From Actinomycetota bacterium (lineage in GTDB: Bacteria; Actinomycetota; Humimicrobiia; Humimicrobiales; Humimicrobiaceae), in contig JAMDEN010000014.1 in the NCBI GenBank assembly GCA_023487035.1, forward strand, positions 683-64,682: a stretch of DNA of 64,000 nucleotides, in the 5' to 3' direction. The notes below the pieces were generated by a model, which searched no databases, was not told the DNA's origin, and saw only the letters and a list, made by a program, of their open reading frames with translations. This document shows, in pieces, positions 6,676 through 20,544 of this stretch. The translations under genes were made by a program, and so were the position numbers. Positions within the stretch are counted from its first letter, which is position 1; each line of letters opens with the position of its first letter.

Positions 6676-7044
6676 CTACTTATTTTCTTCGATTGCATCA
6701 TTTATAACTTTATGTTTATCCTGAAATGTTTTTTGAAGCACTTCACTTATAAGATCATAAGCCTGAATAATCTTAGGATTTGAAATTGAATAATAAATAT
6801 TATTCCCATCTCTTCTGGAATTAACTATCCCCCTGTTTCTTAAAATAGCCAGATGCTGGGAAATAGTAGCTTGAGTAATACCTGTTTCGTTAACAAGCTC
6901 AGTAACAGTTAGTTCTCTGCTTCTTAAAGTATCTATTATCGCCTGCCTGACTGGATTTCCGATTGTTTTACAAATATCAGAATGCAGGTTATAAAAATTT
7001 TTCTTTATCATATTTTTGTAATTTTTTTTATCGTATTTTTGCAA
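6676..7044 (-). CDS. ArsR/SmtB-family HTH transcriptional regulator
   Basis: 122 aa. Winged HTH signature (...NPVRQAIIDTL...LTVTELV..TGITQATISQHLAILRNRGIV..RRDG..IYYSI). No Cys in the alpha3 ELCVCDL position, so metal sensing is not evident. Confidence 0.75.
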   Translation of the reverse strand: MQKYDKKNYKNMIKKNFYNLHSDICKTIGNPVRQAIIDTLRSRELTVTELVNETGITQATISQHLAILRNRGIVNSRRDGNNIYYSISNPKIIQAYDLISEVLQKTFQDKHKVINDAIEENK

Positions 7045-7172: not shown

Positions 7173-7583
7173 TTAAAAATCATTAACAGTCAGAAATTCA
7201 CCTGGGGAAATTATTTGAATATCATTATACTCTTTTAAATTTAATAAGTGCTTATCTCCAGAAATAATATAACTTGCTTTACCGGCAACAGCACATTCAA
7301 TAAATTTTAAATCATCAGAATCATCAATTTCCAAATCTATCTTTTGAACCATATTAAAATACAAAATGTTTTCTTTTCTTTCAAAAATTTTAATAAATTC
7401 ATATAGTTCAGGTTCACCAGCTAAGCCAAGCCGCATTAAAACTTCTAAATATTCTTCTATTATTTCTTTTGTTAAGCAAACAACTAATTTACTTGTTTTC
7501 CATAAATCAATAATTTTCCTCGGGTTGATTGATTGCTTAAAAAAAGAAGATATAAATACATTTGTATCTATAACTACTTTCAT
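7173..7583 (-). CDS. PIN-domain toxin (VapC-like)
   Basis: 136 aa. N-terminal MKVVIDTNVFISSF, characteristic of PIN-domain toxins with acidic residues D6, E, D. 4-bp overlap with the upstream small RHH gene. Confidence 0.75.
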   Translation of the reverse strand: MKVVIDTNVFISSFFKQSINPRKIIDLWKTSKLVVCLTKEIIEEYLEVLMRLGLAGEPELYEFIKIFERKENILYFNMVQKIDLEIDDSDDLKFIECAVAGKASYIISGDKHLLNLKEYNDIQIISPGEFLTVNDF

Positions 7584-7822
7584 TTTTTTCGCACTTCTTC
7601 TATGGCTTTATCAATATCTTTTTCTGAAAACCCTTTGTTTTCAATTTTTTCTGAAATTCTTGACCATAAATCATCAATAATTTTAGAAAAATCATTTTCT
7701 GCTACAAAATCAGCCATTAACTCCCTTACTTTGTCGCTGGTTGTTTTCCCTTCCATTCTTGCTAATTTTGTAAAATCATTTTTTAGATTTTTATCAACTC
7801 TTATTATTATTTTTTCATCCAT
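7580..7822 (-). CDS. ribbon-helix-helix antitoxin (VapB/CopG-like) paired with PIN toxin
   Basis: 80 aa. IIRVDKNLKNDFTKLAR..G.T.S..VRELM pattern of an RHH beta-strand plus two helices. ATGA overlap with the PIN gene. Confidence 0.55.
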   Translation of the reverse strand: MDEKIIIRVDKNLKNDFTKLARMEGKTTSDKVRELMADFVAENDFSKIIDDLWSRISEKIENKGFSEKDIDKAIEEVRKK

Positions 7823-8474: not shown

Positions 8475-11400
8475 GTGGCAAGATCAACTGTTCATTATAC
8501 TGATAATGAAACAAATAATATCTTAAAAAGGCTTCACAATAAATTAAGACCTGCTGGTACCCCTGTTCAAAGGGTTGAATATATTATCGAACTTTTACTT
8601 CTTCGTATTTTTGAAATCAAATTAAAGCAGGATGAAGATTTTATACCTTTAAGAAGTCTTTTTGAAGGTGAGAATTATCAATTATTATTTTCTCATCTTG
8701 TAAGTATTCCGGGAGAACAAATAAAAATTTACCTTAATAAAAATATTTTTCCCTTTTATGCCCAAATTTTATCTAAAGCGAGAAGTGTATTTAAAGAAAA
8801 TTTACCACAAAAAGTTCAGGATAATTTAGTTTTAATTGAAGAAGTATTTGCCAATTCCAGCTTTTCAACCAATGTTCAAAGTGGTAATATGACTGAAATT
8901 ATTGGACTTGTTTCAGATATTGATGAGAATACTATTTTAAGAACTGATATTTTAGGCGATGCTATAGAATCAGCACTTTCTGAAACGGGAGGTACACAGG
9001 ATATAGGACTTTTTAGAACTCCTGAGCATATTCGCCAGATGATGGTTGCATTAGCCAATCCTACTTTCGAAGATACAATATTTGACCCTGCCTGTGGAAC
9101 AGGGGGTTTTCTTTTTGATGCTTATCATTATGTTTTAGAAAAGATTACTAAAGATGGAAAATGGCCGTCTTCAAAATTTCCACCATCTCATCCTGAATTA
9201 AATGAATATTTCAAGAAATACTTTATAAAATTTAATGAACCAATACCAGATATCGATACTGCCAATAGATTTTATCGCGAAGGAGTTAGTGGAATTGAAT
9301 ATTTGGGAATGATAAGGAAGATGGCGGCAATCAATCTTTATATTCGAGGTTTAAATCCGGCAAATATTATCCAAGGGGATTCTTTACAACGCTTTAACCC
9401 TGCACTTGATATGGAATCAAAGACTTTGATATTAAGTAATCCTCCTTTTGGTGCAGAAAGAGACCAACCAGCATATCCGAATATTTGGCAGGAATATGCA
9501 AAGGAGTCTGAAACAACAATTTTATTTGTAAAATTAATGTTTGATTTGCTTAAAAAAGGCGGTAGGTGTGCAGTTGTAGTGTCAGAAGGATTTTTAACCT
9601 GGGATAAAGCATCTGCAAGAGCAATGAGAAAAATTCTTTTAGAAGAGGCAAATTTAAGAGCAATTATTAGTGTTCCTCAAGGTGTTTTTGTCAGCAAGCA
9701 AGGCCAGGGTGCAAAAACCTCTATTTTATACTTTGAAAAAGGTGAACCTACTAAGTGGGTATGGTATTACAAGATTGAAAATGATGGCTTCTCAATGGGG
9801 GTGAATAGAAAACCTATTGAGGGATGCCAAATTCCAGAGATAATTGAGCTCTTTCATAATTATGTAAAACAAGGCAAAATTCCACCAGAAACAAAAAATA
9901 GTTTTATTATTCCTGCGGAATGGATAAAAACATTAGACCCGAGATTAAAAGAAAGAATAAAACAAGAAACAAAAAAAGTAATTTTGCTAAGGAATAAGGG
10001 TAAAAGAGACAAATTAGTTGAGGAGCTAGAAGAGAAAAAACAAAGAGGAAAAATAACCGATGAAATAATAAAAGAAAAACTCTGGCAGTTTGATAATGTT
10101 TTAGAAAACAAAATTAAAAATGAAATATCAAAGCAGATAGAGAAATCGCACCTTTATTCTTTCAATCTTCAGACATATAGAAGCGATCTAACTGATGAGC
10201 AAATCAAAGAATGGCAGAAAGCTTTAAAGAATATTGAGCCAAAAAATAATTCAACTTTGGATGAAAAATACCAGATGCTAAAAACTGCTGATGAAAAATT
10301 AGCTCTTCAATTAATAGCTTCTTTAAACCCAAAAAGTGCCATTGAAATGGACATAGCACATGAGTTTGTAGGAGCAAATCATGAATTGCATATATTTAGA
10401 AGTTTGAATGAGATATTGAAGAAAAGACATAGATATCCAAAAGAAAAACTTGAGAATCTTTTAATACCTAAATATGAAAAAATTGCCAAAGAAGACTACA
10501 AAGGCGATTTTGAGATAATTGAAAAAATAGATTTTGCAAAAGGGCAAATATATTTTAGAAAAGAAAAGCTGACAGGAATGGATCTTTATAAAGCAAATAC
10601 TGGGGATTTAATAACTTCAAAAATTAATCTTTATCAAGGTGCTATCACAATTGCTCCAATTGATTTGGTTTGTTCAACACATTATCAAGTTTATGAGATA
10701 AATACTCAAAAAATACTGCCAAAATATATGTTTTATGTTTTGAGATCAAAGAAATTTTTAGAACCAATTGCAGAGCAAAGAAGCCAAGGTATTAAAAATG
10801 AACAAGGACCAAAGTTTTTGTTAGATTTTTCAATCCCACTTCCCCCTCTTGAGGTTCAGCAACAGATTGTAGAACAAATTGAAAGGCAAAAAGCTATCAT
10901 TGAGGGTGCAGAAAAGATTTTGGAGAACTGGGAGGTAGATATAAATAGATTTTATGGTGAACAATTTGAATTCAGAGAGATTTTCAAAACTCAATATGGC
11001 TATACTGCCTCGGGAACTAATTATGGGGAATTTCGGCTGATTAGGATTACAGACATAAATAGATATGGACAATTAATTGAAGAAAATAAAATGTATGTAA
11101 ATACAATTAGCGAAGCCGATAAACAAATATATATGCTGAAAAAGGGAGATATTTTGATTGCAAGGACAGGAGCTACTTTTGGAAAAATGCTTTATTTTGA
11201 TAAAGATGAAAAGGCGATTTTTGGTTCATATTTGATTAGGTTAATACCTAAGATAAAAATAAATTCTAAATATATATGGTATTACTCATTTTCTATGTCT
11301 TATTGGAAACAAGCTAAAGAATTGGTCGAAGGAGGAACTCAACCTCAATTTAATGCAAATAAAATCATCAAAATAAAAATCCCTATTCCTCCTCTTGAAA

Positions 11401-11522
11401 TCCAAAAACAAATTATTGAAGAATTGGACAAAGAGATGGGGGTATTAGAAAAAGTCAAATTCCTTAAACAAAAAGCCGAAAAAAGAATTGAGGAGATTTT
11501 AGAAAAAGCATGGGGAGAATAA
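8475..11522 (+). CDS. fused type I restriction-modification methyltransferase-specificity protein (HsdM domain + two HsdS target-recognition domains)
   Basis: 1015 aa. GTG start 5 nt after AAAGGAA. HsdM_N-like N-terminus. N6-adenine MTase motif I DPACGTGGFL and motif IV NPPFG. Coiled-coil linker. Two TRD-like halves, each ending in the HsdS conserved-region pattern (PLPPLEVQQQIVEQIE.., PIPPLEIQKQIIEELD..). Confidence 0.8.
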   Translation: MARSTVHYTDNETNNILKRLHNKLRPAGTPVQRVEYIIELLLLRIFEIKLKQDEDFIPLRSLFEGENYQLLFSHLVSIPGEQIKIYLNKNIFPFYAQILSKARSVFKENLPQKVQDNLVLIEEVFANSSFSTNVQSGNMTEIIGLVSDIDENTILRTDILGDAIESALSETGGTQDIGLFRTPEHIRQMMVALANPTFEDTIFDPACGTGGFLFDAYHYVLEKITKDGKWPSSKFPPSHPELNEYFKKYFIKFNEPIPDIDTANRFYREGVSGIEYLGMIRKMAAINLYIRGLNPANIIQGDSLQRFNPALDMESKTLILSNPPFGAERDQPAYPNIWQEYAKESETTILFVKLMFDLLKKGGRCAVVVSEGFLTWDKASARAMRKILLEEANLRAIISVPQGVFVSKQGQGAKTSILYFEKGEPTKWVWYYKIENDGFSMGVNRKPIEGCQIPEIIELFHNYVKQGKIPPETKNSFIIPAEWIKTLDPRLKERIKQETKKVILLRNKGKRDKLVEELEEKKQRGKITDEIIKEKLWQFDNVLENKIKNEISKQIEKSHLYSFNLQTYRSDLTDEQIKEWQKALKNIEPKNNSTLDEKYQMLKTADEKLALQLIASLNPKSAIEMDIAHEFVGANHELHIFRSLNEILKKRHRYPKEKLENLLIPKYEKIAKEDYKGDFEIIEKIDFAKGQIYFRKEKLTGMDLYKANTGDLITSKINLYQGAITIAPIDLVCSTHYQVYEINTQKILPKYMFYVLRSKKFLEPIAEQRSQGIKNEQGPKFLLDFSIPLPPLEVQQQIVEQIERQKAIIEGAEKILENWEVDINRFYGEQFEFREIFKTQYGYTASGTNYGEFRLIRITDINRYGQLIEENKMYVNTISEADKQIYMLKKGDILIARTGATFGKMLYFDKDEKAIFGSYLIRLIPKIKINSKYIWYYSFSMSYWKQAKELVEGGTQPQFNANKIIKIKIPIPPLEIQKQIIEELDKEMGVLEKVKFLKQKAEKRIEEILEKAWGE

Positions 11523-13876
11523 AAAATAAATCAGGACAAGACATGATTAAAAGAATTAAAAAAATCAAAAATATAGCAGTTTTTAAGGATTTTAATTGGG
11601 ATTCAAATATTATTCCTGATTTTAAAAAGTATAATGCTTTTTACGGTTGGAATGGAACCGGTAAAACTACGATTGCTAGAATTTTGTCTACTTTTGAAAA
11701 ATGCGAATTAGGTAAACTTGAATTAGACGATGATTCACTCTGTGTTATTGAAATAGACAATAGTACATTAAAGTTATCAAAAAATGATCCTATTCCGGAT
11801 TTACTTAAAAATAATATAAGGGTTTTTAACGAAGATTTTGTAAATGAGAATCTTGATTGGGTAGAAGGAAGGGCTTCAAAAATTTTAATAATGGGTAAAG
11901 AACAGAAAAAACAGAGGGAAACATTAGATTCAATAATATATAAGTTAGGAAATAAAAATAATGATCTTAAAATGAAAGAGCAAGAAAATAGCAATATTAA
12001 AAAAGAGAAAAACAATATTTTAGAAAAAGCAAGAAATGAAATAAAAGAAAATTTAAGAGAGGTTAATGATATAAAGCCTAAAAGTGGCCGAGCAACTGAC
12101 TATATAAACTATACTGTAGTAGATGTTGAAAATATATTAATAAAAAGTGATGAAGTTATATTAATTAAAGATGATGAGATGTTACAGCTCAAAAATTCAT
12201 TAAAAGAAAAGGAAACAAAGGAGCTTATTGAAGATATAGAAATTCATTTGGGGTGGATTCATAGCATTATAGAGAAATCAAAAAAGATATTTGAAACCAT
12301 CATCCCGGATGAAGGTTTAAGATTATTATCAAATTTAGGAAATATTGATGAAAAATTAAAAGAATGGTTAAGAGTTGGCTATGAGATTCATAAAGAAAAA
12401 CAACATCCAGTTATATGTGAATTTTGCAAAAACGAAATTCCAGAAAAGAGAATCGAAAAATTAGGAGAGTATTTTAGCGATGTTTTAATAAATTTGATTA
12501 AAAATATCGACCAAATTACTAAAGATATCTTACGGAATGAACTTCAAAACTTTCAATTAAAAAAAGAAAAATTTTATAGTGAATTTCAAAATGAGTTTTT
12601 GAATTTAAGCAATATATTCAATCAGCAAGAAAATATAATTAGGCAAGAATTAGATAAAATCAAAAAGATACTAGCAGAAAAGAAAAATAATTCTTCACAA
12701 AAAATTATTTTTGATTTTAATATTCTTAACAAATCCATTACAGGTTTAGAAAATATTATTATTCAGATAAATAGCCTGATTAAAAAGAATAATGAAAAAA
12801 CTAATTCATTTAAAGAAAAACGGGCTGAATATGCACATAATTTAGAATCAGCCATTATTAACAAATATAAACCTGATTATGATGAAAAAGAGAAGAGGTT
12901 AAATGAATTGTGGACGGATATAAAATCATTAAGCAAAGAAATAGAAGAATTAAAAACAAATCAAAATAATATTGAGCGAAACCTTAAAAAACATTATTTT
13001 GCTGCTGAAGAATTTAATAATTTATTGAGATTTTTTTTGGGAAGAAGTGAGATAAGTTTAGAAACGGTGGAAGATGGTTATTTAATAAAAAGAAATGGGA
13101 AAGTTGCAAGTAATTTAAGTGAAAGTGAAAAAAATACAATAGCACTAATTTATTTTCTAATTAAATTAGATGAAGAAAATTTTGATTCTAAAAATGGAAT
13201 AATTGTGATAGATGACCCCGTTTCAAGTTTTGACTCTCAATATCTTTATGGTGCTTTTGCATTTATAAAAGAAAAAGTTAAAGAATTAAATCCACAACAA
13301 GTTTTTATTTTTACCCATAATTTTCCGTTTTTCAGACTTGTTAGAGATTGGATGAAATATGAATATTCTAGAAAAACTTGGGATAAGTTGCCATTTTATA
13401 TGATAAAATCCAAATTAAATGCTACTGGGCGCTATTCTACTTTAGATAAAATAGACAAATTATTAAATGAATATAACTCCGAATATTCTTATTTATTCAA
13501 AAAGATTTATAATAGGGCTAATACTCAAGATAGCAGTTTAGATGATGATTATATTTTCCCCAATGCGATAAGAAAATTTTTAGAGAATTATATTTCATTT
13601 AAAGTACCAATTAGTGGTATAAATATTCATGAGAAACTTAAAAATTTGTGTAATGACTATTATTCACTTATTGAACCGAAAATAAAAACACAAATAGAAT
13701 CTTATTGTCAAGACCAATCCCATCCTTTATATCAAGATAGTCCTATTGATTTTGATGAGAGATTACTTGGTGAAATACAAGAAATATGTTCAGCAATAAT
13801 TGAATTGGTAAAAAAAACAGATCCAAAGCATTATCAAAATTTATTGAAAGAATGTGGATTTAGTAATAATGAGTAA
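11510..13876 (+). CDS. AAA_13-family ABC-type ATPase with long coiled-coil and CxxC hook (RloC/PrrC-like candidate abortive-infection anticodon nuclease)
   Basis: 788 aa. Overlaps the hsdMS stop by 13 nt. Walker A GWNGTGKTT (aa 46-54). About 400-aa coiled-coil insert with C303-x2-C306 near its midpoint. Signature-like LSESEKNTIALIYFL. Walker B/D-loop IIVIDDPVSSFD. H-loop FIFTHN. C-terminal domain with FPNAIRKFLENYISFKVP...H. Confidence 0.6.
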   Translation: MGRIKNKSGQDMIKRIKKIKNIAVFKDFNWDSNIIPDFKKYNAFYGWNGTGKTTIARILSTFEKCELGKLELDDDSLCVIEIDNSTLKLSKNDPIPDLLKNNIRVFNEDFVNENLDWVEGRASKILIMGKEQKKQRETLDSIIYKLGNKNNDLKMKEQENSNIKKEKNNILEKARNEIKENLREVNDIKPKSGRATDYINYTVVDVENILIKSDEVILIKDDEMLQLKNSLKEKETKELIEDIEIHLGWIHSIIEKSKKIFETIIPDEGLRLLSNLGNIDEKLKEWLRVGYEIHKEKQHPVICEFCKNEIPEKRIEKLGEYFSDVLINLIKNIDQITKDILRNELQNFQLKKEKFYSEFQNEFLNLSNIFNQQENIIRQELDKIKKILAEKKNNSSQKIIFDFNILNKSITGLENIIIQINSLIKKNNEKTNSFKEKRAEYAHNLESAIINKYKPDYDEKEKRLNELWTDIKSLSKEIEELKTNQNNIERNLKKHYFAAEEFNNLLRFFLGRSEISLETVEDGYLIKRNGKVASNLSESEKNTIALIYFLIKLDEENFDSKNGIIVIDDPVSSFDSQYLYGAFAFIKEKVKELNPQQVFIFTHNFPFFRLVRDWMKYEYSRKTWDKLPFYMIKSKLNATGRYSTLDKIDKLLNEYNSEYSYLFKKIYNRANTQDSSLDDDYIFPNAIRKFLENYISFKVPISGINIHEKLKNLCNDYYSLIEPKIKTQIESYCQDQSHPLYQDSPIDFDERLLGEIQEICSAIIELVKKTDPKHYQNLLKECGFSNNE

Positions 13877-13930: not shown

Positions 13931-14974
13931 TTGCTAGTAAAAAAATCAAAAAATAACCTTACTGATAATCAAGCAGAGAAAACCGAAGATTCTGGCATTG
14001 TTATTTATCAAACAAATGATGGTAAAGTTGAATTAGATGTGAAACTTGAGAAAGAGACACTGTGGTTAACGCTTAATCAGATGGCTTTACTTTTTCAGAG
14101 AGACAAATCAGTTATATCAAGACATATAAAAAATATATATAAAACAGAAGAGTTAAATAAAAAATCAACTGTTGCATTTTTTGCAACAGTTCAAAATGAA
14201 GGTGGCAGACTTATTCAAAGACAAATGGAATATTACAATCTAGATATGATTATTTCTGTGGGCTATCGGGTAAATTCAAAGCAAGGTACTCAATTCCGTA
14301 TCTGGGCAACTAAGGTTTTGAAAGATTATCTTGTCCAAGGTTACGTCATAAATCAAAAAAAACTTCTGGAACAAACTGAGAAATTCGAGTTGCTGCAAAA
14401 TACTATAAATTTTTTAAAAAATAAATCTATATATCCTGAACTGCATGATAAAACAGAAGAACTTTTAAGCTTTCTTGAAGATTATTCAAAATCGCTTACT
14501 ATTCTAAATCAATACGATAGCGGTGAAATTTCTTTAGTTAAAGGATATAAACCAACTTATAAGATAACTTATAAAAAATGCGAGCAGTTGATACAAGAGG
14601 TAAAAATAAGTCTCATGCAGAAAAATGAGGCTACTGATTTATTTGGTAAAGAAATAAATAATAAACTTAAAAGTATAATTGGGGCAATTTATCAAACATT
14701 TAACAAAAAAGACTTGTATCCAAGTATTGAGGAAAAGGCAGCAAATTTATTGTATTTAATAATTAAAGACCATCCATTTGTTGATGGTAATAAGCGAATT
14801 GGTTCACTGCTTTTTTTACATTTCCTTGCAAAGAATAATTATTTATTAAAAAACAGTGGGGAAAGAAAAATTAATGATAACACTATTATTGCACTTGCTT
14901 TATTAATTGCTATAAGTTTGCCAGTTGAAAAAGATATTATGATTAAAATTATTACAAATTTGTTAATAGGATAA
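13931..14974 (+). CDS. RhuM-family protein with Fic/Doc (Fido) domain, Doc-type motif
   Basis: 347 aa. N-terminal RhuM-like region (IVIYQTNDGKVELDV..ETLWLTLNQMALLFQRDKSVISRHIKNI). C-terminal Fido motif HPFVDGNKRIG (Doc-type HxFx[DN][AG]NKR) at nt 14771-14803. TTG start at 13931 after AAGAGGAG. Confidence 0.75.
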   Translation: MLVKKSKNNLTDNQAEKTEDSGIVIYQTNDGKVELDVKLEKETLWLTLNQMALLFQRDKSVISRHIKNIYKTEELNKKSTVAFFATVQNEGGRLIQRQMEYYNLDMIISVGYRVNSKQGTQFRIWATKVLKDYLVQGYVINQKKLLEQTEKFELLQNTINFLKNKSIYPELHDKTEELLSFLEDYSKSLTILNQYDSGEISLVKGYKPTYKITYKKCEQLIQEVKISLMQKNEATDLFGKEINNKLKSIIGAIYQTFNKKDLYPSIEEKAANLLYLIIKDHPFVDGNKRIGSLLFLHFLAKNNYLLKNSGERKINDNTIIALALLIAISLPVEKDIMIKIITNLLIG

Positions 14975-14976
14975 TT

Positions 14977-17352
14977 ATGAATCTTAATGAAGCAACATCA
15001 ACTGATTTAAAGATAATAAACGAACTTCAGAAAATTGGCTGGAAACCAGGAGATACTCTACTTTATCAGCCAGAATATAAATTGACTGAAGACCAACAAA
15101 AAGAATTTTCTGGACATAAAAGTATTAAACCAGATGTTGTCCTCCAGGATTTACACGGTAATGTTTTAGCTGTTTTTGAAAATAAGCTTGAAAACGAGAA
15201 AAAAGCGTTAACCAAATTAAGAACTTTATATTGGCGTGTTTTAAAACCAAGATTTTTATACGCTTGTTCATCCGAAAGAATACTTTTTTATGATACTTGT
15301 TGGCGTGGACTGGAAGCAGGTGATTTCAGACGAGTTGACGGTTTTATGACACTGGAAGAAATGCTTTTAAAAATTGAGCAAGAAAAACAAAAGAATTTAC
15401 AAAGAGAAATTATTATTGATAAGGCAATAATTGGTGGTTATGACCCAGTAGTTGGTAAGGAAAGATATTTTCAGACTGAATGCGTTCAAACTTTGGTTGA
15501 AAAATATAAACAAGGAAAACAAAAAATGCTTGTGCATATGGCAACAGGTCTTGGAAAAACAAGGATAGCTGTTGCTTTTACAAAAGCATTATTACAGTAT
15601 GGACTTGCAAAAAGAGTTTTATTTGTGGTTGATAGAATTATACTTGCAGAACAAGCTCGTAATGAGGGATTTAGTTTGATTAATAAAGATTTTCATTGTG
15701 CCTGGGTTAAAAGTTCAAATTATAAACAATACAGAAATTATAATATCCATATTGTTGTTATTGATACTTTAGAGAATATTTTTCAGGAAATTCCCAATAC
15801 CTTTTATGATTTGATTATCGTTGATGAATGCCATCGTTCAATAAATATTAACCGTAAGTTGATTTTTGATCATTTTTTATGTCCAAGAGTAGGTTTAACT
15901 GCTACGCCAAAAAAGGCGATTTTAGCAAAAGATGCTAAAGATATTTCAGAAGAAGATTTAGAGATTTTAGACACTTATAAACTTTTTGGATGTGAAACAA
16001 ACGAACCAGATTATCAATTTGATTTATCCCATGGAATTGATGAAGGATTTTTAGCCCCATACAAAGTTTTGGAAATAAAAACCCAACTTACTAAGGAAGC
16101 AGAAGAAAAGGGAATTGAATTTGATTATGTTTTTGATCCTGACACAAGAAAAAAGATTGAATTAGATAAGACAAAAAAGATTTGGCTTGAACAACTTGAA
16201 AAGAAATACTTATCGGAAGAAAGAGCTTTAAGAATTGCTGAAGAAATCAAGAAAAATACTCAATATGGTGAAAAGATGATTTTATTTGGAGCAAGTCAAG
16301 CACATTGTATTATTCTTGCTGATGCCATTAACAAAGTTTTTAGTGATAATGGAGAAATTGCCCCAAAATATGCTGAGGCAATTATTTCAGATAATAGTAA
16401 TATAAATGATACTTTAAAAGAATGGTTTAAAAATCCAAATAGAAAACCATATATTGTAGCTTCAGTTGATATTATGACTACAGGAGTAGATATACCTTGT
16501 GTAAGATTTATCGGTTTTGTTACATTAACCAAATCTGTAGGAAAATATATTCAAATGCTTGGAAGAGGTACAAGACTTGATCCAAAATCAGGTAAGTTTA
16601 GCTTTACCATCTTAGATTTTGTAGGACTTTGCAAAAAGATGGAAGATAATGGAAAAGGTACACTAAAACCAAATATAAAAATTGTAAAAGAGTCAAAGAA
16701 CATCTTAAAAGGATGGGCTGAAAAAATAGGAGAAACTCCTATTAATTGGGTTTTTATACCTAATCCTGATCCTGCAAATATGATTCAAAGGGTTTGGGTT
16801 CATGAGCGAGGTATTAAAATTATAGATAATATCCCGATAGAAGAAGCAAAAAAGTTATTTGAAGAAGAGGCACAGAAAATCACAAGAGATGATATATTAT
16901 CATTGCAACAAAAAGTTAAAGAAAATCCAAAATATGAACCTACTGATAGCGATTTAGAAATTATAAAAGAATGGGCAAAAAATCCTGAAATATATCTTGA
17001 TGAAGAACAACTTAAAAGGATATACAATTATCCTCAAGGAAATATCTGGGATTTCTTTTTACATGCTACTGGAGTTAAAAGTATACCAACACTTGAAGAA
17101 AGGATAGAAAAAGGATTTGAAGAATTTATTAAAGCTTACAATTTCACTAATGACGAGCAGGTAAGAATTCTTGAAAGAATAAAAAATATTTTAGCTAAAA
17201 ATTATATAAATAATAAAAGATTATCTTCTAATGATATATTCTCCTCGCCCATTTATGAACAGATTGTTGGTAGAAAAGAAGAATTAGATAAAGTATTTCA
17301 AAATAGATTTTCTGAAATTTTAAAATATCTCGAAGAATCAATTAAAATTTAA
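14977..17352 (+). CDS. HsdR-like restriction endonuclease subunit (N-terminal PD-(D/E)xK nuclease + SF2 helicase), short form
   Basis: 791 aa. N-terminal KPDVVL...VFENKLE (PD...ExK). Helicase motif I MATGLGKTRIA, motif II IIVDECHR, motif III TATP, motif VI QMLGRGTR. Immediately follows the RhuM gene (stop/start separated by 2 nt). Confidence 0.8.
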   Translation: MNLNEATSTDLKIINELQKIGWKPGDTLLYQPEYKLTEDQQKEFSGHKSIKPDVVLQDLHGNVLAVFENKLENEKKALTKLRTLYWRVLKPRFLYACSSERILFYDTCWRGLEAGDFRRVDGFMTLEEMLLKIEQEKQKNLQREIIIDKAIIGGYDPVVGKERYFQTECVQTLVEKYKQGKQKMLVHMATGLGKTRIAVAFTKALLQYGLAKRVLFVVDRIILAEQARNEGFSLINKDFHCAWVKSSNYKQYRNYNIHIVVIDTLENIFQEIPNTFYDLIIVDECHRSININRKLIFDHFLCPRVGLTATPKKAILAKDAKDISEEDLEILDTYKLFGCETNEPDYQFDLSHGIDEGFLAPYKVLEIKTQLTKEAEEKGIEFDYVFDPDTRKKIELDKTKKIWLEQLEKKYLSEERALRIAEEIKKNTQYGEKMILFGASQAHCIILADAINKVFSDNGEIAPKYAEAIISDNSNINDTLKEWFKNPNRKPYIVASVDIMTTGVDIPCVRFIGFVTLTKSVGKYIQMLGRGTRLDPKSGKFSFTILDFVGLCKKMEDNGKGTLKPNIKIVKESKNILKGWAEKIGETPINWVFIPNPDPANMIQRVWVHERGIKIIDNIPIEEAKKLFEEEAQKITRDDILSLQQKVKENPKYEPTDSDLEIIKEWAKNPEIYLDEEQLKRIYNYPQGNIWDFFLHATGVKSIPTLEERIEKGFEEFIKAYNFTNDEQVRILERIKNILAKNYINNKRLSSNDIFSSPIYEQIVGRKEELDKVFQNRFSEILKYLEESIKI

Positions 17353-20041: not shown

Positions 20042-20287
20042 ATGGCTGAGAATAAAAAAATATGTAAAAATATAGATCCTAAAGTTATTGCATATATTGC
20101 AGGTGGGGCTGTTGCGGGCGGAATAGTTGGCTATATCATACATAAAGTTGGTTTTAAAAATGTGGCAAAGATTTTAAAAGATAAAAATATAATCTCTTCA
20201 GGTATTGGTGACTTTATAAAAGATTTTGATTTAAAATCTTTTACTTCAAAAAATAATAAGGATTTTGAAGATTTAGAAGAGGATTAA
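20042..20287 (+). CDS. hypothetical small protein with one Gly/Ala-rich TM segment
   Basis: 81 aa. SD GGAGG 8 nt upstream of ATG. VIAYIAGGAVAGGIVGYIIH hydrophobic segment. No recognisable domain. Confidence 0.3.
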   Translation: MAENKKICKNIDPKVIAYIAGGAVAGGIVGYIIHKVGFKNVAKILKDKNIISSGIGDFIKDFDLKSFTSKNNKDFEDLEED

Positions 20288-20544
20288 GGAATGTCTATTT
20301 GCATTTCCTTGTGAATATTCGATTCGCTTATCCTCGAGAGAAGCTCTTTAAGTTCATACTCTTCTGTCTCAACAGGTGATATAACTATTTGCTTATTTTC
20401 AACTTTAATTTCTACAGCTGAGTTCTCCTTAAGCTTTAGCTCCTTAATGTAAGCATTTGGCAGTCTTAATCCAAGACTATTACCCCATTTTTGAATTTTA
20501 GTTATCAAATTAAATAGTTTGTATGTGTTAATTAATATATACAA
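20284..20544 (-). CDS. AbrB/MazE/SpoVT-type (swapped-hairpin) antitoxin-like protein, apparently orphan
   Basis: IQKWGNSLGLRLP motif typical of MazE/PemI/ChpS-type antitoxins. True start probably downstream of the annotated one. No toxin gene adjacent. Confidence 0.5.
   Translation of the reverse strand: MYILINTYKLFNLITKIQKWGNSLGLRLPNAYIKELKLKENSAVEIKVENKQIVISPVETEEYELKELLSRISESNIHKEMQIDIP

Follow-up and report, generated by a model that had tools for sequence, protein, structure and literature searches.

What does a gene annotated only as an 'AAA family ATPase' encode when it lies inside a type I restriction-modification (R-M) operon? The question is raised by an open reading frame (ORF) at positions 11510–13876 of the forward strand in a 64,000-nucleotide stretch from an Actinomycetota bacterium (contig JAMDEN010000014.1 of assembly GCA_023487035.1), the whole of which is referred to as the window. 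Taken as the longest ORF, it encodes 788 amino acids. A preliminary description of this DNA had suggested a restriction-linked candidate anticodon nuclease that resembles RloC or PrrC. Our analysis indicates that the product is probably an anticodon nuclease of the RloC family, carried as a cassette inside the operon (hsdMS – rloC-like – rhuM/doc – hsdR). The RloC half of the suggestion stands, on a full-length family match, an invariant hook and Arg/Glu/His set, a Rad50/SMC-like head, a C-terminal domain with the HEPN fold and the R-M context. The PrrC half does not, PrrC having no coiled-coil insert.

The RloC-like ORF is real. The identical 788-residue protein is present in NCBI under the label given above and is found on at least eight independently assembled contigs with unchanged neighbours, so that neither the ORF nor the insert within it is an assembly artefact. 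The true start of the gene is probably the ATG at 11543 (M12), because an AGGA lies 6 nucleotides 5' of this codon, the homologues and the PADLOC profile, BLASTP and hhalign alignments all start at M12, and residues 1–7 of the longest ORF have a predicted local distance difference test (pLDDT) score below 50 in AlphaFold. The hsdMS stop overlaps the beginning of the longest ORF by 13 nucleotides, yet it lies 20 nucleotides before the probable true start. Residue numbers throughout follow the longest ORF, as in the preliminary description, and are not counted from M12.

By its sequence, the protein is an ordinary full-length member of the RloC family. It matches Pfam AAA_13 (PF13166) with E=1e-116 over profile positions 3–712 of 713. 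Its best profile match over the whole protein is the PADLOC candidate PDC-S06 (PDLC04894; E=9e-166), in which residues 12–780 align with profile positions 1–736 of 740. PDC-S06 and PDC-S23, the latter matched by the neighbouring RhuM-Doc gene, for which PDC-S05 is also named, are catalogued single-gene defence candidates. Such entries come from bioinformatics, with no mechanism described for them, and give no functional information beyond RloC, and we found no functional data in the literature on PDC-S06 or PF13166. NCBIfam contains no specific RloC or PrrC model and returned only sub-threshold SMC and ABC matches to the protein.

Of the 5.8 billion proteins searched for homologues, 83 proved to be relatives, and those at 56–68% identity bear the JGI name 'wobble nucleotide-excising tRNase', that is, RloC. 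The same name is attached to some of the 951 proteins from a second search, made with a profile of more distant relatives of about 800 residues. The canonical RloC clade holds proteins that are 90–93% identical over a 43-residue fragment (93% for P0095) to Q36U84_MARHY, an RloC orthologue from the alignment that supplements the founding paper (PMC2610378). BLASTP aligns the window protein with P0095 at E=2e-50 and 26% identity. The preliminary description had proposed a profile comparison as a check, and hhalign of the close subfamily against the canonical clade gives a probability of 100% with E=2e-92 over 740 columns. The features by which Davidov and Kaufmann define RloC are present in the sequence, namely the ATPase motifs, a CX2C-bearing insert, R-X3-E-X36-52-H and homology to orthologues over the full length. 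Relatives detected by tblastn occur on 246 plasmids, and every one of them is annotated as 'AAA family ATPase' or 'hypothetical'. One RloC-like protein from outside the window (P0051, 903 residues) has a Peptidase_S24 domain, a LexA-like autoprotease, besides AAA_13; this fusion would fit the proposed control of RloC by DNA damage.

Conservation was scored in two alignments, one of 76 full-length homologues and one of 73 sequences. Invariant in both are G46, G51, K52, N107, W286, G290, C303, C306, L536, S537, E540, D568, D569, P570, S573, D575, Q597, H603, N685, R688, E692, S737 and H738. As judged from these alignments, the invariance of the ATPase, hook, R688 and E692 residues is far beyond chance. 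A script finds the ORF, the Walker A, the signature-like segment, the Walker B/D-loop, the H-loop, C303/C306 and R688/E692 exactly where the preliminary description had placed them (Table 1). The signature reads LSESE against a family consensus of LSEGE. At the end of head lobe I, the VFNEDF segment may have a Q-loop-like function. The putative zinc hook belongs to a longer family motif, W286-x3-G290-x3-H294-K...C-x-F-C.

The closest known system is RloC itself, represented by the proteins of Geobacillus kaustophilus (GkaRloC) and Acinetobacter baylyi; GkaRloC, at 804 residues, is of the same length class. RloC and the window protein share one order of elements: Walker A, a helical insert with a central CxxC, signature, Walker B/D-loop, H-loop and a C-terminal domain with R-X3-E-X36-52-(S)H. 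By the published numbering, the corresponding positions in the window protein and GkaRloC are K52/K44, C303 and C306/C291, D568 (D569)/D572, R688/R692, E692/E696 and H738/H737. In GkaRloC, mutation of K44 abolishes activation of the anticodon nuclease, and D572N is inactive (PMC3458546). The hook of GkaRloC, ...WVREGLGLHKGLECAFCGNKI, agrees in pattern with that of the window protein, ...WLRVGYEIHKEKQHPVICEFCKNEI, the former being read from an imperfect optical character recognition copy of residues 121–540 in the paper's supplement. Used as a query, this imperfect fragment found no match in the genome contigs or the protein database; other rows of the same supplement figure do match retrieved proteins. 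Among the retrieved homologues, none is an 804-residue relative in register with the R692/E696/H737 numbering of GkaRloC.

The C-terminal part of the protein would be its effector. We obtained a full-length AlphaFold (AF2) model from 73 sequences with a mean pLDDT of 86, and the C-terminal domain of this predicted model adopts the four-helix up-down fold of HEPN domains. Its sequence identity to HEPN structures is 4–9%. Foldseek ranks HEPN toxins first for this domain, which agrees with the literature, where the nuclease domain of PrrC/RloC is placed in HEPN (PMC3710099). The published RloC motif is Arg-X3-Glu-X36-52-His, often with a Ser before the His, and is represented by R692/E696/H737 in GkaRloC and R320/E324/H356 in EcoPrrC; mutation of any one residue of the GkaRloC triad abolished activity (PMC2610378). 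In the window protein, the segment FPNAIRKFLENYISFKVP at residues 683–700 contains R688 and E692, and R688-X3-E692-X45-S737-H738 fits the published RloC spacing exactly. The preliminary description had taken H707 as the third catalytic residue. We reject this candidate: H707 is kept only inside the close subfamily (His in 28 of 76 sequences, a gap in 27), and its X14 spacing from E692 falls outside X36-52. As S737-H738 is invariant and X45 lies within the published range, conservation and spacing identify H738 as the catalytic histidine.

On the other hand, the residues preceding H738 depart from those of EcoPrrC and the canonical RloC clade. In EcoPrrC, Arg349 is located seven residues before His356 and is strictly essential, the A, K and Q mutants all being inactive; it is stated to be conserved in RloC, and Asn352 is also needed, with Gln tolerated at that position (PMC3025547). 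The R of the HEPN motif Rx4-6H is this Arg349 (PMC3710099). The canonical RloC clade reads R-I-N-N-E-Y-S-H, and the window protein reads K-T-Q728-I-E-S731-Y-C-Q734-D-Q-S-H738, which puts Q728 at H-10, S731 at H-7 and Q734 at H-4, the last being the position of N352 in PrrC, where Gln is tolerated. In the joint alignment, S731 stands opposite the arginine of the canonical 'RINNEYSH', and hhalign opens a 3-residue insertion and places Q728 (codon CAA) opposite it. The window protein, which is about 26–28% identical to the canonical clade, differs from it in this insertion before SH and in having no Arg349-type arginine. The close subfamily as a whole has the 3-residue insertion relative to canonical RloC, and its arginine nearest to SH is at H-10 (R728) rather than H-7.

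Several observations weigh against the identification as an RloC-type anticodon nuclease. The equivalent of Arg349 (HEPN Rx6H) is absent from the window protein, with Q728 or S731 in its place depending on the alignment. R728 is present in most of the close subfamily, yet 5 of 27 members are without it, the window protein included. The Foldseek ranking of HEPN toxins is not significant (E 0.1–0.3), and no PrrC/RloC entry came up in sequence searches of the PDB with the single sequence and with a profile, which gave nothing beyond AriA, Rad50 and coiled-coil noise. Analogy is the source of the proposed Zn binding, dimerisation, trigger and tRNA substrate. It is mainly because an arginine essential to PrrC is missing that the nuclease activity should not be taken as certain. 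From the residues that are retained, we infer that the window protein may be catalytically competent.

These observations give some room to a different reading, in which the protein is an RloC homologue with an attenuated or respecified HEPN domain that cuts mRNA or rRNA, acts only in the R-M complex, or has no catalytic role and senses RNA or DNA as a partner of the R-M system. It would explain why Q728/S731 could replace a residue that tolerates neither Ala, Lys nor Gln in EcoPrrC, and the loss of R728 in some subfamily members indicates that the position is not strictly constrained; moreover, HEPN domains without the motif can be non-catalytic (PMC3710099). However, very divergent clades, the close subfamily among them, all retain N685, R688, E692, S737 and H738 unchanged, which is hard to explain without catalysis, and the original definition of RloC requires only R-E-H (PMC2610378). 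We therefore regard an attenuated or respecified domain as rather unlikely. Compared with the HEPN RNases (MNT-HEPN toxins, Csm6, RNase LS/LsoA and Las1), the window protein is missing the canonical Rx4-6H arginine and, unlike them, has an upstream N-x2-R-x3-E helix that supplies a conserved Arg and Glu.

The ATPase head raises the question of whether the protein is instead a Rad50/SbcC-like or Lamassu LmuB-like SMC protein, which would act on DNA in repair, or in end sensing with a separate effector, and whose C-terminal domain would be no nuclease. In the AF2 model, the head has two lobes (residues 13–128 and 513–620) split by a mostly helical insert of about 385 residues. Long helices of the insert span residues 130–182, 357–393, 404–432 and 434–492, and shorter helices occupy the central 183–356. 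The CxxC is located in a short beta-hairpin and, as the preliminary description had stated, near the midpoint of the insert (303–306 against 320), and it is invariant in 76 of 76 homologues. A crude heptad test exceeded 95% of the null in 27% of the insert windows compared with 6–8% in the head lobes, mainly in the returning arm at 340–480. A Foldseek search of the whole model against the PDB returned at the top Lamassu LmuB, SMC heads with coiled coil and Mre11-Rad50 complexes, with E down to 2.5e-6. These heads, together with the mostly helical and partly heptad-enriched insert, support the view that the Rad50-like topology holds for the model; the coiled coil of about 400 residues in the preliminary description was correct as to a long helical insert enriched in heptads and overstated for its centre.

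The same matches are what an SMC protein would give, and they are joined by weak PADLOC matches to LmuB (E=7e-9) and by an equally weak NCBIfam match, at E=1e-8 and far below cutoff, to an SMC-related protein of archaea. Rad50/SbcC and LmuB are indeed like the window protein in head fold and in having the two head lobes separated by an inserted coiled coil, at whose apex Rad50 carries a CxxC zinc hook as well (PMC2610378). However, the full-length matches to AAA_13 and PDC-S06 are more than 100 orders of magnitude better, and neither Rad50, SbcC nor LmuB has a HEPN-fold C-terminal domain with invariant R/E/SH. Rad50 moreover has a much longer insert, and the AF2 model does not show the centre of the present one as a plain antiparallel coiled coil. 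No gene for the partner proteins Mre11/SbcD, LmuA or LmuC is found in the operon. An SMC protein acting on DNA is thus a very improbable identity for this ORF.

A true PrrC orthologue, that is, a GTP/dTTP-regulated tRNA-Lys nuclease of about 400 residues masked by a type Ic R-M system, shares with the window protein the ABC motifs of an ATPase N-terminal domain, the R-X3-E...H triad of a C-terminal nuclease and the classic prrC position in a type I hsd operon, but it is effectively refuted by the domain architecture, because PrrC has 396 residues, E-X31-H and no coiled-coil or zinc-hook insert, the window protein has 788 residues, E-X45-H and a hook-bearing insert that the eight independent contigs establish as genuine, and its nearest relatives are named RloC. 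PrrC also needs Arg349, which the window protein lacks. The PrrC box, which confers GTP/dTTP specificity, and the LARP motif for tRNA-Lys are absent or degenerate in RloC (PMC3458546, PMC3025547).

Table 1. Elements of the RloC-like protein (residue numbers of the longest ORF) and genes of the surrounding operon, with window positions.
Feature	Positions	Strand	Evidence
Walker A/P-loop GWNGTGKTT, residues 46–54	11645–11671	+	G46, G51, K52 invariant
VFNEDF segment, residues 105–110, end of head lobe I	11822–11839	+	N107 invariant
Helical insert of ~385 residues splitting the ATPase head, residues 129–512	11894–13045	+	AF2 secondary structure, heptad enrichment, Foldseek
Putative zinc hook CxxC, C303-E-F-C306 (CEFC)	12416–12427	+	C303/C306 76/76, F305 75/76
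ABC signature-like LSESE, residues 536–540	13115–13129	+	L536, S537, E540 invariant
Walker B and D-loop IIVIDDPVSSFD, residues 564–575	13199–13234	+	D568, D569, P570, S573, D575 invariant
H-loop FTHN, residues 601–604, linchpin His H603	13310–13321	+	H603 invariant, T602 75/76
C-terminal helical HEPN-fold domain, residues ~650–788, putative anticodon nuclease	13457–13873	+	
N685-x2-R688-x3-E692, Arg and Glu of the PrrC/RloC triad	13562–13585	+	Invariant; counterparts PrrC R320/E324, GkaRloC R692/E696
H707, not conserved family-wide	13628–13630	+	His in 28/76, gap in 27/76
Q728...S731, Arg349-type positions without arginine	13691–13702	+	Joint alignment, hhalign, codon CAA
S737-H738, conserved putative catalytic His with RloC-typical Ser	13718–13723	+	76/76
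Fused hsdM-hsdS, 1015 residues, GTG start, first operon gene	8475–11522	+	Pfam N6_Mtase 9e-36, Methylase_S 3e-23; PADLOC MTase_I 1e-78, Specificity_I 5e-36
RhuM and Doc-type Fic gene, motif HPFVDGNKR	13931–14974	+	Pfam Virulence_RhuM 8e-27, Fic 2e-12; NCBIfam DOC_P1 4e-12; PADLOC PDC-S23 5e-127
HsdR, EcoAI/EcoEI-like type I restriction subunit, last operon gene	14977–17352	+	Pfam ResIII 2e-30, Helicase_C; NCBIfam EcoAI/FtnUII E=4e-75, below cutoff; EcoEI_R_C on identical contig

The operon that contains the RloC-like gene is tightly spaced, and all of its genes are on the forward strand, in the order hsdMS – rloC-like – rhuM/doc – hsdR. In the fused hsdM-hsdS ORF, N6_Mtase covers residues 157–466, and the best-scoring of two Methylase_S stretches covers residues 832–986. 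The preliminary description had placed the RloC-like gene between hsdMS and hsdR. It is embedded in the R-M operon as described, with a RhuM-Doc gene intervening before hsdR, which starts 3 nucleotides past the RhuM-Doc stop. The RhuM-Doc gene is a second embedded toxin-like cassette; its HPFVDGNKR corresponds to the Doc-type HxFxDGNKR and not to the AMPylating GNGR, and its listed TTG start is probably too early, the profiles beginning at about residue 20.

Directly upstream of the R-M operon, a PIN_3-domain toxin gene and an 80-residue ORF without a Pfam match (7173–7583 and 7580–7822, both on the reverse strand, the toxin start overlapping the 80-residue ORF) likely form a toxin-antitoxin pair, adjoined by an ArsR-type regulator at 6676–7044. 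The PIN pair and the R-M, RloC and Doc genes form a small defence cluster. An 86-residue ORF with a MazE_antitoxin domain is located at 20284–20544 on the reverse strand, according to gene calls on an identical contig (L009). The surroundings are those of an ordinary chromosome (with genes such as those for SecY, alanine racemase, a GlmS-like protein and PGM) of about 29% GC, with no compositional break in the window that would mark a foreign island by GC content and no tRNA or tmRNA gene in its 64 kb. A promoter and terminator scan of the operon was uninformative, with 48 promoter-like sites against 58 expected in DNA of 29% GC. The identical protein bears names in public records that conflict on the phylum ('Actinobacteria bacterium' and 'Cyanobacteriota bacterium'), and this conflict suggests a mis-binned metagenome-assembled genome.

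The R-M linkage is also seen in the relatives. Five of six close homologues (L003, L005, L006, L007 and L008) sit between a type III mod gene (TypeIII_RM_meth/N6_N4_Mtase) and a res gene (ResIII and HI_1054), with gaps of 3–10 nucleotides or overlaps, and the sixth lies beside a BREX/Pgl-like cluster. At one of these loci (L006), mod is split into three fragments next to an IS1595 transposase, and the RloC-like and res genes are intact. Further away, a relative of 41% identity is located beside an Abi_C gene and one of 31% beside a helicase-DUF4391-methylase cluster; among members of the canonical clade, one lies between hsdS and hsdR and another has no R-M neighbour. The RhuM-Doc gene is in none of the ten homologue loci inspected, and the RloC-like and RhuM-Doc genes are therefore independent cassettes.

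The close relatives nearly always sit inside an R-M system, wedged between its methylase and its restriction subunit, whereas Davidov and Kaufmann recorded a link to type I or III R-M for only 8 of the 72 RloCs in their survey (2008, PMC2610378). Both the architecture and the placement in R-M operons are already described in the literature. The gene was named rloC for 'restriction-linked orf' at the hsd loci of Campylobacter (Miller 2005, cited by PMC2610378). A three-level defence of R-M, RloC-like ABC-HEPN and Doc, as well as neighbourhoods of R-M with Doc/RhuM, has been reported (Anantharaman 2013, PMC3710099).

How an RloC-family nuclease might work in this operon is suggested by analogy with GkaRloC and E. 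coli PrrC (PMC2610378, PMC3710099, PMC3458546). The nuclease would be latent in normal cells. Two protomers may be joined through a Zn ion held by their CxxC hooks, and this hook dimerisation would keep the nuclease off. The ATPase head would sense DNA, as GkaRloC does DNA ends, or here perhaps the state of the co-expressed R-M complex; a possible trigger is a phage anti-restriction factor that disables this complex. ATP hydrolysis would then switch on the HEPN RNase, which might cut the anticodon loops of tRNA in a metal-independent transesterification and possibly remove the wobble nucleotide. Cleavage of tRNA would stop translation and abort the infection, and the nuclease would in this way be a back-up defence against phage. 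A latent tRNase guarded by an R-M system is the logic proposed for PrrC, and since the close subfamily is so tightly coupled to R-M genes, it is plausible that the restriction enzyme guards its members too in the manner of PrrC.

A further proposal can be made only tentatively. The close subfamily (at least 56% identity, about 30 clusters) might be a distinct, obligatorily R-M-embedded branch of RloC in which the zinc-hook architecture is joined to guarding of the PrrC kind, exerted by a co-translated restriction enzyme of type I here and type III in most relatives, and to a remodelled HEPN site, in which the 3-residue insertion is present and the Rx6H arginine is displaced to H-10 or, here, lost. 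We hold this to be doubtful. If it were true, the catalytic arrangement or the RNA target could differ from those of GkaRloC and PrrC, and activation could come from failure of the R-M complex instead of DNA ends.

As an RloC-family member, the window protein is one further example of a pattern described since 2005–2013, and it leaves the field unchanged. For this organism, a gene labelled only 'AAA family ATPase' becomes a candidate RloC-type abortive-infection nuclease in a layered defence operon of type I R-M, RloC and RhuM-Doc that adjoins a PIN toxin-antitoxin pair. For the family, the loss of an arginine essential to PrrC has a bearing on the workings of the structurally uncharacterised HEPN active site of PrrC/RloC. 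This RloC branch, consistently and tightly linked to R-M genes (type III systems in the relatives, type I in the window), is also well suited to a test of PrrC-like guarding.

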